DNA of 64,000 nucleotides from Caulobacter sp. (GCA_032122215.1 JAUMCZ010000031.1:7131-71130); one strand, 5' to 3'; numbered from the stretch's first letter, positions 9,407 to 14,181 are shown. Numbers and translations: made by a program. Notes: a model not told the origin generated them from the letters alone.

Positions 9407-9805
9407 CTATTCGGGCGTCCAGGGCAGATAGTCGCCCGTCGCCTTGTCGCGCTGTCCATCGCCGGAGATCGAACCCTTGGGCCGCCAGGCATAAACGGTG
9501 CCGGTCAGGTTCGGCCGGTGTTCCTTCTCCCAGCTGCGGCGCGGCAGCGGAGCGATAGTCGGCGGCTCTTCGAACGTGTAGCGCAGCCAGCCGTGCCAGT
9601 CCGGCGGCACCTTCGAGGCCTCGGCATAGCCGTTGTAGATCACCCAGCGGCGCTTGCGACCGACGTCGTAGCTGTCCTTGTCGTCGCGGGCTTCATAGTA
9701 GGTGTTGCCGAACTCATCCTGGCCGATCTTCACGCCGCGGCGCTTGATGTGGAACGTCTGCCCCAGAGTGGCGCCGTTCCACCAGGTAAAGATCGCTTTC
9801 AGCAC
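9407..9805 (-). CDS. NADH:ubiquinone oxidoreductase subunit NDUFA12 (17.2 kDa) family protein
   Basis: FTWWNGAT, G.DEFGNTYY, RRWVIY, EASKVPPDWHGWL, EHRPNLTGT; probable GTG start at 9805. Confidence 0.88.
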   Translation of the reverse strand: MLKAIFTWWNGATLGQTFHIKRRGVKIGQDEFGNTYYEARDDKDSYDVGRKRRWVIYNGYAEASKVPPDWHGWLRYTFEEPPTIAPLPRRSWEKEHRPNLTGTVYAWRPKGSISGDGQRDKATGDYLPWTPE

Positions 9806-9879
9806 AGGAGAATCCGTCTGTCGGGAGGGGTCGAATTTCGAGCGGAACATAGAGGGCGGCGGAGGAAAAACAAAGCGTT

Positions 9880-10054
9880 CCTTCTCCCGCTTGTCGGGAG
9901 AAGGTGGCCCCCGAAGGGGGTCGGATGAGGGCTGAGCAGAAGTGGAAGATTGGCGACAGCGGCCAACGCGCCAGAACACGCGCAATCGTCTACCGCCGGT
10001 GCTGCCCTCATCCGACCGCTACGCGGCCACCTTCTCCCGACAAGCGGGAGAAGG
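9880..10054. repeat. REP doublet-like element, family B (CCTTCTCCC..GGGAGAAGG), copy 1
   Basis: Two ~52-bp arms (9880-9931 and 10005-10054) are near-perfect reverse complements and differ only in an inner hairpin. Confidence 0.88.
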
Positions 10055-10065
10055 GATCATTGATT

Positions 10066-10113
10066 GCACCATATCTTGTGGATGACACCGCGCCGCACCC
10101 CATCATCTATTGC
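10066..10113 (+). promoter_or_regulatory. Tandem NrdR-box-like sites with an overlapping DnaA-box-like site upstream of the NrdJ-like gene
   Basis: GCACCATATCTTGTGG (10066-10081) fits acaCwAtATaTwGtg; weaker copy 32 bp downstream (10098-10113); TGTGGATGA (10077-10085) is TCATCCACA on the minus strand. Confidence 0.6.
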
Positions 10114-10167: not shown

Positions 10168-12708
10168 ATGCGTTTCGAGCGACGGCGAGCCAAGGCCGCG
10201 GGGCCGGAAGTCGAGCTTCGCACCCTGGAGGGGGCGAGCGCCCTCACTGGCGTGCTAGCGCCCATCAGCTGGCCGAGCGCCCGCGTCCAGGCCTGGGCTG
10301 ACTGGGCCGACACGCTGGCCGATCCCGCGGCGGCGCAAGACCTGCCCAACGTCCTCAGCCAACCCCTGACCCCCATCGGCCTTCTTGGCGGCGGCCCTGC
10401 CCGCAAGGCGCAGGACCTGGCCGGCAAGGGCTGGACCGCCGGCCTGTTCGCCCGACCCACCGACGCCGGCGCCTTCCGTGACGAGCTGTTCGCCCTGATG
10501 AGCCACGGGGTGGTCGCCCTGGCCGGCGCACGGCGACCCGCGCCCGTCCCGGTGATCGATCTCGCCACGCCCGACTCCGACCGCGCCCTGGCCGCCTTCG
10601 CCGCCGATATCGCCGCCCACGACCTGACCCGGCCGGCCCTGCGCACCCTGACCGAGCGCCTCGCCGCCGTCAGCGACGCCGTCCGCCGCTGCGAGGGCGA
10701 CGCCGCCGCCTGTGCCGATCCGACCGCCAACCCGGCGCTGGCCCGCATGGCGCGCGCCGCCCGCGCCGCCGGAGCCAGCGACGCCGCCATCAGCGACGCC
10801 ATCGGGGCGGGCCTGTGCGGCCTTGCCACCGCGCCGCAGGCCGCCGAGGCGCCCGCTCGCCCTGCCGTCATCCTTCAGGCCGCCGACGATGCCCACACCG
10901 GCCGCGAACGTGAGCTGGCCGCTCTCGGCTGGCGCACCGGCGCCGCTACACTGGCCCTGACCGCCGAAGACGCCGCCGCCCTGTCGGCTCGCGCCGCCGG
11001 CCCGGTCGCCGCCCTCGATCTGCTCGCCTTCCAGCGGGGTCAGACCTTCGACATGGCGGGCTTCGAGGCCGCCGCCCGCCTGCTGGCCGCAGCCGTCCGC
11101 CTCGACGCCGGCCCGGACGGCCCGGCAACCCTGACCCTTGCCAATACCGCCGCCCTGATCGTCGCCCGAGGCCTGGCCTACGACAGCGACGAGGCCCGCG
11201 ACCTGGCCGCCGACCTGTGGAGCCGCGCCGCCTCGGCCGCCCGCGGCCTCGCCGACGTCGCCCCGCATGAGGACGCCGAACTCCAGCTGCGCCTCGGCGC
11301 AGCCTCGATGGCCGCCGCCCCCTGGTCCGGCCCGCTCACCATCGCCGAGACCGAAGACGGCGAAACCCTGCGCGTGATCGCCGAGCCGGCCCTCGATGCG
11401 CTCGCCTGTCTTGGCGAAGACCCCGACGCCCTGCGCCTGGCCCTGCTCGGCCACCGCGACTTCGCCGAAGCCCCGCATATCAACAGCGCTTCCCTGGCGG
11501 CCCTGGGCTTCACCGTCCTCGAGACCGAGTCCATCCAGGCCGTCCTGCCCCTGGTCACCGACCTGCGCGACGCCTTCAGCCCGCTGGTCGTCGGCGAGGG
11601 CTTCCTGCGCGACATTCTCGGCGCCGATCCGGAAGCCCTGCGCCGTCCCGGCTTCGACACGCTCGGGCTGGCCGGCTTCACCGACCGCCAGATCGCCGAG
11701 GCGGGCGCCTGGGTCCTTGGCTCCGCAAGCCTCGACCTGGCAAGCGACCTCTCGCCCGCCGCCCGCGCCATCCTGGATCCTGAGCAGCCCTTCGCCGCCC
11801 GCCTGGCCCTGCACGCCGCCATCGAGGACGCCTGCGGCCACGCCGGGGCGCTGCGCCTGCCGCTCAGCTTCACCGCCCTGCCCTCCGAAGCGGTCCTGCT
11901 CCAGGCCCAGGCGCTCGCCGCCGGGGTCCGGGCCCTGCGGCTGGACCGCGCCGGTCCTCCGCTTGCGTTCAATCTCGCCATCCCGGACGAGGCCGCCCCC
12001 GAAGCGCCGCGCGCCGCGCCGGCCCAGGAGCGCATCATCGAGCGCGTGGTCGAACGCGACCGCACCCGCCGCAAGCTTCCCGACCGCCGCAAGGGCTACA
12101 TCCAGAAGGCGGCCGTCGGCGGCCACAAGGTCTACCTGCACACCGGCGAGTACGACGACGGCGAGCTGGGCGAGATCTTCATCGACATGCACAAGGAGGG
12201 CGCCGCCTTCCGCAGTGTGATGAACAACTTCGCCATCGCCATCAGCATCGGCCTGCAATACGGCGTGCCGCTCGAGGAGTTCGTCGACGCCTTCGTCTTC
12301 ACCCGCTTCGAGCCCGCCGGCCCGGTGACCGGCAACGACACCATCCGCTCAGCCACCTCCATCCTCGACTACGTCTTCCGCGAACTGGGGGTCAGCTATC
12401 TGGGCCGCAACGATCTCTCCAACGCCGACGGCGAGGAGCTCAACGCCGATGGCCTCGGCCGCGGAAAGGCCGACGACGCCCTGACCAGCGAAGCCGAACC
12501 CCAGCCCGCCAGCCGCTTTATCTCCAAGGGCTTCTCCAGGGGCGCCGCCCCGGATAACCTGGTCTTCCTGCCCTTCGGCAAGCGCCCGGGCGAGGTGATG
12601 ACCGACCACCCCCGCGCCGCCAGTGTCTGCCCCTCCTGCGGCGATCAGTCGGTGTTCAGCGGTGTCTGCGACACCTGCGGCGTGGTGATCGAGCAGAACG
12701 CCCGTTAA
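10168..12708 (+). CDS. Class II ribonucleotide reductase (NrdJ)-like protein with degenerate catalytic barrel, intact TSCPD domain and C-terminal Zn ribbon
   Basis: C-terminal [11 protein letters not shown]...[12 protein letters not shown]...[13 protein letters not shown]...[11 protein letters not shown]...FTRFEPAG is typical of alphaproteobacterial NrdJ; CPSC/CDTC ribbon; no NPCxE motif. Confidence 0.85.
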
Positions 12709-12744: not shown

Positions 12745-13230
12745 ATGAAACGCCTCGCCCTGCTCATCCTCGTGGCCGCCGCCCTCGCGGGCCCCGCGAC
12801 CGCCCAGAACGCCGGCCAGATCGCCCGCGTGCGCGGCGGGGCCAGCTGCCCCGGCTGCAACCTCTTCCAGGCCGATTTCATGGGCATGGAACGCAGCGGC
12901 CTCAACTTCCGCAAGGCCCGCCTGCGCCAGGCCACCCTGACCGCCGTGGTCATGAATCGCGCCAACTTCGCCGGCGCCGACCTGCGCGACGCCGACGCCT
13001 CGGCGGCGACCTTCTCGGGCGCCAGCTTCGCCGGGGCCAATCTGACCAACGCCAACTTCGTCGGCAGCTACCTGCAGGGCGCCAACTTCAGCGGCGCCAA
13101 CCTCTCCGGCACGGTCTTCTCCGGGGCCGAGATGGACCGCGCCGTCGGCCTCACGCAACGCCAGCTTGACCAGGCCTGCGGTGACGAGACCACGCGCCTG
13201 CCGAGGGGTCTGCGGATCCCCCGGTGCTGA
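12745..13230 (+). CDS. Exported pentapeptide-repeat protein
   Basis: Signal peptide; CPGCNL cap; A(N/D)(L/F)xx repeats; C-terminal AC...TRLPRGL..PRC. Confidence 0.9.
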   Translation: MKRLALLILVAAALAGPATAQNAGQIARVRGGASCPGCNLFQADFMGMERSGLNFRKARLRQATLTAVVMNRANFAGADLRDADASAATFSGASFAGANLTNANFVGSYLQGANFSGANLSGTVFSGAEMDRAVGLTQRQLDQACGDETTRLPRGLRIPRC

Positions 13231-13320
13231 TTGAAACGGGCTGACCCGGAACCGGGAAAACCCAATCCTTACCGCGAATTAAGTGGCGCCCCTTCGGCGC
13301 GTGGGCCACATCTGATCTCG

Positions 13321-14181
13321 ATGAACAAGCTCGCTGTCGCCCTCTCCGCTTTCACGCTTCTGGCCGCCGCCGCCGGCGCGGCAGAGGCGAGGATCGTTGC
13401 GAACGAGAAGGACATTCCGCGCCAGCTGTCGTTCGGCGGCGCCTGCCGCCAGTGCGACCTGTCGGGCAAAAAGCTGGTCAACGCCCGCTTCACCGGAGCC
13501 GATTTCGGCGGCGCGACCATGGTCCGGGCCGACCTGCGCGGAGCCAGTTTCGTCGGCTCCAACTTCCAGGGCGCCCGTCTCGCCGACGCCGATCTCTCGG
13601 GGGCCGAGATGATGGGCTCCAACTTCTCCTACGCCGATTTCACCGGCGCTGAACTCGACGGCATCGAGGGCGCCGGCGCCGTCTTCCAGAAGGCGAACTT
13701 CACCCGCGCCAGCTTCGAGGGCGCCGAACTGCCGGCGGTGAATTTCCAGGGCGCCAAGCTGGTCTCGACCAGCTTTCGCGGCGCGGAACTGCCCCACGCG
13801 ATCATGACCCAGGTCCAGGCGACCGGAGCCAGTTTCCGTGACGCCGAACTGGTCGGCGCCAAGCTGATCAGCGCGACCTTTACCGACGCAAACTTCCGCG
13901 ACGCCGATCTGACCGGCGCCATGCTTTTGCGGTCGACCTTCAACAACGCCGATTTCCGCGATGCCGACCTGACGAACGCCAGCCTGTTCGGCGCCGACCT
14001 CAGCAAGGCCCGCAACCTGACCCAGCATCAGGTCAACGAGGCCTGCTCGGATAACAGCACCAGGCTGCCGAACGGCCTGACCCCGCGCCTGTGCAAAGGT
14101 CGCCGGATGGTGGTGTTCAAGACCCCGGCCCCGCCCGAGCCGCCTGAACCACCGAGGGCGCCGAGGCAGGCTCAGCGCTAG
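13321..14181 (+). CDS. Exported pentapeptide-repeat protein (long)
   Basis: Signal peptide MNKLAVALS; CRQCDL cap; about 35 pentapeptide repeats; AC...TRLPNGL...C; Pro-rich tail. Confidence 0.9.
   Translation: MNKLAVALSAFTLLAAAAGAAEARIVANEKDIPRQLSFGGACRQCDLSGKKLVNARFTGADFGGATMVRADLRGASFVGSNFQGARLADADLSGAEMMGSNFSYADFTGAELDGIEGAGAVFQKANFTRASFEGAELPAVNFQGAKLVSTSFRGAELPHAIMTQVQATGASFRDAELVGAKLISATFTDANFRDADLTGAMLLRSTFNNADFRDADLTNASLFGADLSKARNLTQHQVNEACSDNSTRLPNGLTPRLCKGRRMVVFKTPAPPEPPEPPRAPRQAQR

Follow-up and report, generated by a model that had tools for sequence, protein, structure and literature searches.

In a 64,000-nucleotide stretch of Caulobacter sp. DNA (GCA_032122215.1 JAUMCZ010000031.1:7131-71130, referred to as the window), the gene at positions 10168-12708 encodes an orthologue of the class II ribonucleotide reductase (RNR) NrdJ that has lost all catalytic residues. 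According to the best explanation for the data, which is considered moderately probable, the gene product represents a non-catalytic protein that is controlled by NrdR and retained for a catalysis-independent role of its C-terminal domain. The corresponding open reading frame (ORF) on the plus strand starts with ATG, is uninterrupted and comprises 846 codons plus the stop codon. The sole Pfam match of the deduced protein was TSCPD (PF12637; residues 650-740, 38.3 bits, gathering threshold 22.8). Furthermore, the NCBIfam equivalog PRK07562, which represents the long alphaproteobacterial NrdJ, matched residues 610-799 only and remained below its cut-off (E 3e-104; 349.7 bits vs 1737), as did PRK06556 (159.5 bits vs 859). 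Members of this gene family are labelled as 'ribonucleoside-diphosphate reductase alpha chain' by JGI and as RNR in some UniRef entries, and more recently as 'TSCPD domain-containing protein' by NCBI. An original prediction, which had been made from the sequence of the window alone, had described an intact 846-residue ORF for an inactive enzyme that automated annotation would take for a working RNR; the ORF listing agrees with the former, and JGI, the NA1000 annotation and some UniRef entries do the latter. Features of the gene are as follows.

10168..12708, plus strand: coding sequence of the putative non-catalytic NrdJ orthologue (ORF listing; at least 120 full-length relatives without NPC; the start MRFERR aligns with MRIERR of true NrdJ)
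10168..11997, plus strand: predicted remodelled RNR-derived domain, residues 1-610 (AlphaFold model, Foldseek match to 7b9p, ratio of nonsynonymous to synonymous substitution rates (dN/dS) of 0.07-0.25, deletion map)
10684..10743, plus strand: conserved insert motif, residues 173-192, where conservation within the N-terminal domain is highest; its homologue in true NrdJ is NCEGSGDDCFDPEKNPAL
10957..11028, plus strand: relic of finger loop and strand F, residues 264-287 (in the alignment, the Asn and thiyl-Cys columns are gaps, Glu is replaced by Ala269 and the second redox Cys by Gly278)
11416..11829, plus strand: best-preserved NrdJ-like segment, residues 417-554 (phmmer match to 7b9p residues 725-862; helical in the model)
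12058..12417, plus strand: core of the C-terminal domain, residues 631-750, TSCPD-like and Cys-free with TSILD for TSCPD (Pfam PF12637; blocks with mean identities of 0.87-0.94 between family members and the window sequence)
12619..12687, plus strand: Zn ribbon (C821, C824, C834, C837) without the two redox Cys (four invariant Cys; aligned with the true tail CxEC..NGTCMKCDTCGSTTGCS)

In order to compare catalytic positions column by column, the window protein and 13 of its relatives (14 sequences of the dead form, which is devoid of NPC) were aligned by means of MAFFT with 13 true alphaproteobacterial NrdJ sequences from genome loci. C199, N474, C476, E478 and C487 (L062 numbering) are invariant in 13/13 true enzymes, in which the strand A Cys is embedded in HACFIQ, the finger loop in SNPCSE and the strand F Cys in TACNLAS. 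The columns of C199, N474 and C476 are gaps in 14/14 dead sequences. At the position of the Glu residue, 12 of the 14 carry Ala, one (L005) carries Glu and one has a gap, while the strand F Cys column is occupied by G, A, S, R, P or E or represents a gap. The NPC motif was absent from the window protein and from all 120 relatives checked. Relative to a 1251-residue true enzyme, residues 155-277, 392-427, 458-476 and 584-665 have no counterpart in the window protein. Both the specificity site and the dimer interface of canonical type, which are formed by helices A and B with loops 1 and 2, are eliminated by the first of these deletions (…DLWVREARLFKYGSGTGSNFSRL…SGGTTRRA), as is strand A; the strand A region itself corresponds to true residues 155-238. 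Deletion of residues 458-476 removes the finger loop. The NNS segment on the substrate side and the linker preceding the Zn ribbon were also lost. Altogether, the dead form is approximately 400 residues shorter than true NrdJ. It retains the N-terminal helical part, the C..C.DP..NPAL insert, the second barrel half with its helical appendage, the Cys-free TSCPD-like core and the four-Cys Zn ribbon. These results bear out the prediction that NPCxE occurs nowhere in the protein and that the catalytic Cys is lost; mapping of the catalytic Cys, Asn and Glu, which had been proposed as a check, placed no Cys at the canonical active-site positions.

As an enzyme, the gene product fails every testable defining feature of a class II RNR. 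Since the deletions comprise strand A together with the finger loop, both effector loops and the NNS segment, the barrel should be unable to hold substrate and radical in the manner of known RNRs. The same outright deletions argue against the assumption that the protein still functions as an RNR or another radical enzyme using non-canonical residues, which is highly improbable. The predicted fold is RNR-derived and well ordered, and invariant C175, C182, N188, R193, D397 and E452 in the N-terminal domain could be taken in favor of such an enzyme. However, C175 and C182 originate from an insert that is also found in true NrdJ and is missing in the active Rhodobacter sphaeroides enzyme. Sensor functions considered in the original prediction are likewise affected. 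Canonical sensing of deoxyribonucleoside triphosphates (dNTP) through the RNR specificity site is contradicted, because helices A and B together with loops 1 and 2 are deleted. In class II RNR, the adenosyl pocket is located between the finger-loop Cys and strand J (2022 RNR phylogeny preprint). Since this pocket involves the finger loop, which is deleted here, binding of adenosylcobalamin or a role as B12 sensor appears unlikely.

Despite these losses, the N-terminal part remains recognizable as NrdJ. In a phmmer search against the PDB, residues 417-554 matched residues 725-862 of R. sphaeroides NrdJ (7b9p) with an E-value of 1.6e-11, and three weaker upstream matches followed the same order along both proteins (overall E 6.5e-13). 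The order of segments is also identical between the dead family and the 13 true alphaproteobacterial enzymes in the MAFFT alignment. Residues 173-191 of the window protein correspond to NCEGSGDDCFDPEKNPAL in true NrdJ, and both the motif at residues 335-344 and the counterpart of ALYRDG were present. Among 89 family sequences, C175, C182, N188, L191 and R193 are invariant in the insert region, as are D397 and E452 further downstream in the N-terminal domain, and the block comprising residues 181-210 shows a mean identity of 0.71 to the window sequence across the family. An AlphaFold model built with the same 89 sequences reached values of the predicted local distance difference test (pLDDT) mostly above 90 for residues 1-610. 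Foldseek retrieved 7b9p as top match of this model (E 2.3e-19), and all listed matches were RNR; the template modelling (TM) score was just 0.45, and the first strand of the RNR-like barrel is gone. In line with the original prediction, the diverged first ~630 residues thus proved collinear with NrdJ by phmmer, MAFFT and Foldseek, the motifs it had quoted are all present, and the structure prediction it had called for gave a confident model of residues 1-610 with NrdJ as nearest fold. Because of the high pLDDT, the NrdJ-like fold, low dN/dS values and the 517 cluster representatives retrieved at E <= 0.001 with the N-terminal part alone as query, this part is modelled as a folded, constrained and remodelled RNR body rather than as drifting sequence.

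In contrast to the catalytic part, the core of the C-terminal domain hardly changed. Over a stretch of 115 residues, identity amounts to 86% among active enzymes, 91% within the dead family and 83% between dead and active forms, whereas the corresponding values for the N-terminal/catalytic part are 69%, 46% and 30%. The C-terminal core is more constrained than the catalytic domain even in active enzymes, and catalytic loss left that unchanged. The Cys-free TSILD variant also occurs in true alphaproteobacterial NrdJ. Differences are found in the tail, which follows the pattern C-x2-C-x10-C-x2-C-x2-C-x5-C in true enzymes and ends in GCS in 61/62 of them. Members of the dead family possess C-x2-C-x13-C-x2-C (88/114) or C-x2-C-x9-C-x2-C (24/114, including the window protein), and the redox-pair Cys are absent in all 114 members checked. 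For the NrdJd enzyme of S. nassauensis, four of the six tail Cys were assigned to Zn binding and two (C933 and C945) to the redox pair delivering electrons (PMC5704485). According to the alignment, the equivalents of C933 and C945 were lost and the proposed Zn ligands kept. The strongly conserved TSCPD region with its CPSC..CDTC Zn ribbon had been anticipated correctly, as had the missing terminal GCS Cys, in addition to which one further Cys was found to be lost.

The NrdJ C-terminal domain is known for two roles, namely dithiol exchange with the active site and oligomerization in response to effectors (PMC5704485, PMC4520616). The original prediction had listed, among other options, an NrdJb-like accessory protein acting for a catalytic class II subunit from another gene, as in the NrdJa/NrdJb pair of Pseudomonas aeruginosa. 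NrdJb consists of the C-terminal domain, inter-subunit electron transfer has been documented for NrdJd (PMC5704485, PMC4520616), and some alphaproteobacteria carry two NrdJd genes, the C-terminal domain being encoded by only one of them (PMC5704485). Moreover, NrdJ-like proteins devoid of the C-terminal domain exist (P0252 and P0248, approximately 800 residues), yet they also lack NPC and the NPCxE loop. Nevertheless, an accessory subunit of this type is very improbable. Its known task is dithiol exchange, and exactly the two Cys required for it are missing in 114/114 family members, so that a role in dithiol exchange should be impossible for the dead form. Furthermore, the position of the gene is that of the full-length enzyme, and no other class II gene is named in publications on Caulobacter crescentus. 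As a weaker point, when the catalytic part of the Euryhalocaulis enzyme was used as query, the best 120 matches were exclusively active NrdJ, none of which, most being nameless, was named Caulobacter, Phenylobacterium or Brevundimonas. Scaffold or regulator roles are possible.

Values of dN/dS were calculated according to Nei-Gojobori for the closest genome pairs and compared with those of neighboring genes in the same pairs.

N-terminal 600-odd codons of the dead nrdJ: 0.07-0.25
C-terminal domain core (125 codons): 0-0.1
Tail: 0.05-0.25
accC: 0.01-0.06
aspS: 0.02-0.1
aat: 0.07-0.18

Both halves of the dead NrdJ are under purifying selection, and the gene is not decaying. The N-terminal values are comparable to those of the neighboring genes aat and the DUF2155 gene. 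Per-domain dN/dS analysis, which had been suggested along with the original prediction, thus returned values far below 1 throughout, and the proposal of a pseudoenzyme kept under selection for its TSCPD/Zn-ribbon module holds with respect to purifying selection, but not with respect to the restriction to this module, since the N-terminal 630 residues are also under selection (0.07-0.25, with pLDDT above 90). A functionless relic that has merely escaped interruption so far is barely credible and is contradicted by the present data. The N-terminal part is indeed rich in Ala, very rich in G+C, shortened and faster-evolving than in active enzymes. However, reading frames are complete in 62/62 dead-form loci from at least four genera, the N-terminal domain is confidently predicted from co-variation, and the C. 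crescentus counterpart is translated to approximately 1,000 molecules per cell. In the window, the DNA encoding the N-terminal part has a G+C content of 73-80% and that for the C-terminal part of ~67%, and the first 630 residues comprise 25% Ala; this composition fits relaxed constraint combined with G+C-biased substitution pressure, from which the richness in Ala would result. The region 10250-11750 (73-80% G+C) also shows a strongly negative GC skew, and its flanks and the conserved C-terminal part range from 63 to 70% G+C. As a separate observation, the cluster of P0415 (Caulobacter sp. BE254) includes the members P0501 (594 residues) and P0507 (327 residues), both recorded with 78905 bp as longest contig, which may represent a split or frameshifted copy in one assembly caused by sequencing error or by a rare real disruption.

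Distribution of the gene was analyzed by scanning a single genome for each species with an aligned query restricted to the N-terminal part, and the best 80 of 324 loci were evaluated. Sixty-two of these harbor a gene without NPC encoding approximately 800-975 residues and are labelled Caulobacter, Phenylobacterium, Brevundimonas, Caulobacteraceae, Caulobacterales and, in one case, Glycocaulis. In 15 loci of other alphaproteobacteria, the same slot is occupied by a gene for a protein of 1220-1350 residues, where complete, featuring the finger loop. The gene order accC-aat-DUF2155-NDUFA12-[gene] is common to the window, the dead-form loci and loci of Hyphomicrobiales, Reyranella and Euryhalocaulis. 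Judged by this arrangement, the dead gene is a positional orthologue of alphaproteobacterial nrdJ of the long NrdJd type and not an extra copy. Because dead and true forms share one genomic slot, catalytic loss is placed in the resident nrdJ gene, apparently before the radiation of the Caulobacteraceae. Within the marine stalked relatives, the dead form of a Glycocaulis metagenome-assembled genome (MAG; L068) is nearer to true NrdJ in the insert region (INCDGSEGECFDPRHNRAL), and a Euryhalocaulis MAG (L077) and some Maricaulaceae (P0287, P0311) encode active enzymes. The limit between dead and active forms thus falls within this group and could serve to date the event.

The dead gene also keeps what appears to be a regulatory signature of the RNR regulon. 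Upstream DNA was scored with the 16-bp NrdR palindrome, the consensus of which is attributed to Rodionov and Gelfand (2005) and was not derived from a Caulobacter experiment. Two candidate sites were recognized.

10066..10081, plus strand: NrdR-box-like site 1, GCACCATATCTTGTGG (palindrome score; block CAAnATnTTGkGGAT conserved in 45 aligned upstream regions)
10098..10113, plus strand: NrdR-box-like site 2, CCCCATCATCTATTGC, located 32 bp after site 1 (block CCnCAACATCTATTG conserved in 45 aligned upstream regions)

Against this consensus, site 1 is the only site scoring at least 18/24 in the 64-kb window, and no tandem pairs appeared in 30 shuffles. The DNA between the two conserved blocks is not conserved in the 45 upstream regions. 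The best pair of boxes is spaced by 31-32 bp in 49/52 Caulobacterales loci and in 8/12 true nrdJ loci, and shuffled sequences were without preferred spacing. Two NrdR boxes per promoter, at a distance of about three helical turns, are a described arrangement for RNR genes, and binding of NrdR to the sites upstream of the dead gene is presumed from this resemblance.

Conservation of the boxes bears on the chief rival explanation, namely co-option for a function unrelated to nucleotides, for example together with the downstream pentapeptide proteins or as a general scaffold, with the NrdR boxes being meaningless relics. On the same strand as the dead nrdJ, and separated from it by a gap of 36 bp without a terminator-like site, the window contains two pentapeptide-repeat genes (12745-13230 and 13231-14181). 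Most Caulobacteraceae loci contain such genes in this position and orientation, and tblastn found no match to them in true-nrdJ loci. In addition, every canonical ligand site is gone and the N-terminal domain diverged strongly, to 30% identity with active enzymes. Co-option is nevertheless deemed unlikely. In three genera, both the sequence and the spacing of the boxes have been conserved, but not the intervening DNA, which argues for continued use. Likewise, rate and sequence of the C-terminal core remained unchanged after the catalytic loss, which fits an old function that was kept. Finally, the pentapeptide proteins begin in the manner of secreted proteins (MKRLALLILVAAALAGPATAQ), the first with a signal-peptide-like N-terminus and the second with a hydrophobic stretch about 35 residues in; direct partnership of such secreted-like proteins with a cytoplasmic protein is unlikely.

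The model organism C. crescentus very probably harbors the dead form, too. In the literature, its RNR-related genes are given as nrdE (CCNA_03607), nrdB (CCNA_00261), nrdJ (CCNA_01966) and CCNA_01420; no second class II gene is named there. CCNA_01420 was rejected as a second RNR, since it is identical to CC_1358 and represents nrdR. CCNA_01966 is annotated as 'vitamin B12-dependent ribonucleotide reductase' in NA1000 and corresponds to CC1889 within the consecutive run CC1883-CC1892. Of the neighboring genes, CC1886 and CC1887 encode alphaproteobacterial signature proteins, CC1887 having 105 residues and being shared with eukaryotes, which fits a homologue of NDUFA12, and CC_1892 encodes aspartyl-tRNA synthetase. 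The order DUF2155, NDUFA12, dead nrdJ, two pentapeptide genes and aspS in the window equals that of the C. crescentus run. Given this position and the uniformity of the Caulobacter loci seen, CCNA_01966/CC1889 very probably is a member of the dead family. No C. vibrioides record was among the matches listed in homology searches and cluster look-ups, and a MAG labelled C. vibrioides (L046) does not represent the laboratory strain, judging by the sequencing runs that contain it. Translation of CCNA_01966 was reported to yield approximately 1,000 molecules per cell in M2G and approximately 1,200 in PYE. An nrdR deletion strain of C. crescentus exists; a literature search for its transcriptome found none. 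If CCNA_01966 is dead, the reasoning on B12 use and dNTP supply in publications that give it as a B12-dependent alternative to NrdAB needs revision, and hydroxyurea- and B12-based experiments in this species would have to be read with the class I enzyme alone.

In the lineage of Caulobacter, Phenylobacterium and Brevundimonas, and in Glycocaulis, nrdJ thus lost about 400 residues and all catalytic residues. Based on these results, the following interpretation is proposed. The protein would be unable to reduce ribonucleotides, and canonical binding of the allosteric dNTP or of adenosylcobalamin is improbable. Being mostly aerobic, the bacteria concerned would depend on the class I enzyme NrdAB. 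The gene would have been retained for a second, redox-free job of the C-terminal domain, carried on a remodelled RNR scaffold and already present in active NrdJd. Such a second job would explain why the C-terminal core surpasses the catalytic domain in conservation even among active enzymes. The protein would most likely act in binding, as an adaptor or in regulation, be co-expressed with RNR genes under the (d)ATP-sensing repressor NrdR, and engage whichever partner the C-terminal domain engages in active enzymes. More specifically, and only tentatively, the C-terminal domain of NrdJd may have a catalysis-independent function, for example linking replication or the cell cycle to the supply of dNTP by engaging a conserved partner or signal. 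Such a function would have been of sufficient importance for an entire bacterial family to keep the gene after ribonucleotide reduction had been given up, and the C. crescentus 'NrdJ' would be a pseudoenzyme regulator within the NrdR regulon and offer no B12-dependent route to dNTP.

Several points weigh against retention of a non-catalytic, NrdR-controlled protein for its C-terminal domain. The NrdR boxes could be inherited baggage. The presence of a second, active nrdJ is poorly constrained by the search described above, since active NrdJ are all 63-67% alike and most of the best 120 matches are nameless. CCNA_01966 was assigned to the dead family by gene order. Moreover, dS is near saturation except in the closest pairs, from which alone reliable dN/dS ratios were obtained. 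Finally, the C-terminal domain is predicted with low pLDDT, namely below 50 for residues 620-817 in the full-length model and with a mean of 58 when residues 620-846 were modelled separately from aligned active and dead sequences.

Among known systems, NrdJd class II RNR (PRK07562; 7b9p; the S. nassauensis enzyme, Loderer et al. 2017, PMC5704485) is the evident counterpart, sharing slot, ancestry, order of segments, the C..C.DP..NPAL insert, a C-terminal core of 83% identity, Zn-ribbon ligands and tandem NrdR-box-like sites upstream of the gene. It differs from the dead form, which is about 400 residues shorter, by possessing the thiyl Cys, Asn, Glu, the active-site Cys pair, the specificity loops and the redox pair of the tail. 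According to our reading, NrdJb of the split class II RNR of P. aeruginosa (Crona et al. 2015, PMC4520616) shares the TSCPD-type C-terminal domain, which in NrdJb does not itself bind B12, substrate or effector (PMC4520616). However, NrdJb performs dithiol exchange for NrdJa, whereas the dead form is devoid of redox Cys and has this domain fused to a dead RNR body of 610 residues.

Pseudoenzymes are also known from other branches of the RNR family. The R1 homologues of betaherpesviruses, M45 of murine cytomegalovirus and UL45 of human cytomegalovirus, lost their catalytic residues and are retained for non-enzymatic protein binding. Those are viral class I proteins with an added N-terminal interaction motif, whereas the protein described here derives from a cellular class II orthologue with a conserved native C-terminal module and RNR-type regulation. 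Rnr4 of Saccharomyces cerevisiae is an inactive small-subunit paralogue supporting Rnr2 and thus resembles the dead form as an RNR-family pseudoenzyme kept to support or regulate an active RNR. Unlike the dead form, in which the large-subunit dimer interface is deleted and for which no active twin of the same class is known, this small (beta) paralogue forms a heterodimer with its active twin. Neither an inactive NrdJ nor a comment on the Caulobacter protein was found in the searchable literature, including the RNRdb paper and the 2022 RNR phylogeny preprint.

The dead form would represent a natural separation-of-function allele, in which catalysis, allostery and redox relay were removed and the C-terminal core was frozen. 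The extreme conservation of this core and the physiological partner of NrdJd thereby become testable in a tractable organism. It would also be a case of a bacterial pseudoenzyme that arose from an enzyme of an essential pathway by degeneration of the orthologue and not by duplication. In practical terms, homology-based counts of 'nrdJ' in metabolic reconstructions and surveys of B12 dependency will be too high for Caulobacteraceae, and dead forms elsewhere (Paracoccus) suggest that this family is not a single case.

Further NrdJ-like proteins of deviating type were noticed in the course of the analyses. P0242 from Paracoccus zeaxanthinifaciens (L082, 8001-10964) comprises 987 residues without NPCxE, ends in a four-Cys tail and is encoded in a different neighborhood. 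P0264 (1197 residues) is also without NPCxE, its active site reading SSSDSALMFLDGSFAPQATIDL. Judging by such sequences, catalysis in NrdJ may have been lost more than once. P0260, a protein of 1414 residues from an NCBI metagenome contig, is a true NrdJ, the NPC motif of which is split by an intein directly after NP (…INATNP|CVTGDTLV…VVHN|CSEYIFLDD…); its extein served as a true-NrdJ reference. Locus L033, labelled as a MAG of Alsobacter soli, is of the Caulobacter type, and its N-terminal part is 85% identical to that of Caulobacter sp. 32-67-35 (L017); the contig was probably mis-binned or the MAG mislabelled.

Concerning the surroundings of the gene, promoter and terminator scans around the dead nrdJ revealed no promoter-like and no terminator-like site, and an Rfam scan of the window detected no B12 riboswitch, its single match being one tRNA. 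Sequencing runs containing the window gene were of metagenomic DNA only. A G+C-rich hairpin of 23 nucleotides (CTTCTCCCG-loop-CGGGAGAAG) is present in two exact copies of opposite orientation, 150 bp apart (9881-9903 and 10031-10053). Both copies lie in the intergenic region that separates the divergently oriented NDUFA12-like gene and dead nrdJ, shortly before the NrdR boxes. They have a chance expectation of 0.01 matches and look like a pair of REP-type (repetitive extragenic palindromic) or miniature elements. The NDUFA12-like ORF on the minus strand (9407-9985) comprises 192 codons, of which only residues 84-191 match the Pfam model; the C. crescentus homologue CC1887 has 105 residues. Translation of the NDUFA12-like gene probably starts far downstream of the first possible start codon, and the intergenic region containing hairpins and boxes would thus be wider than the ORF coordinates imply.

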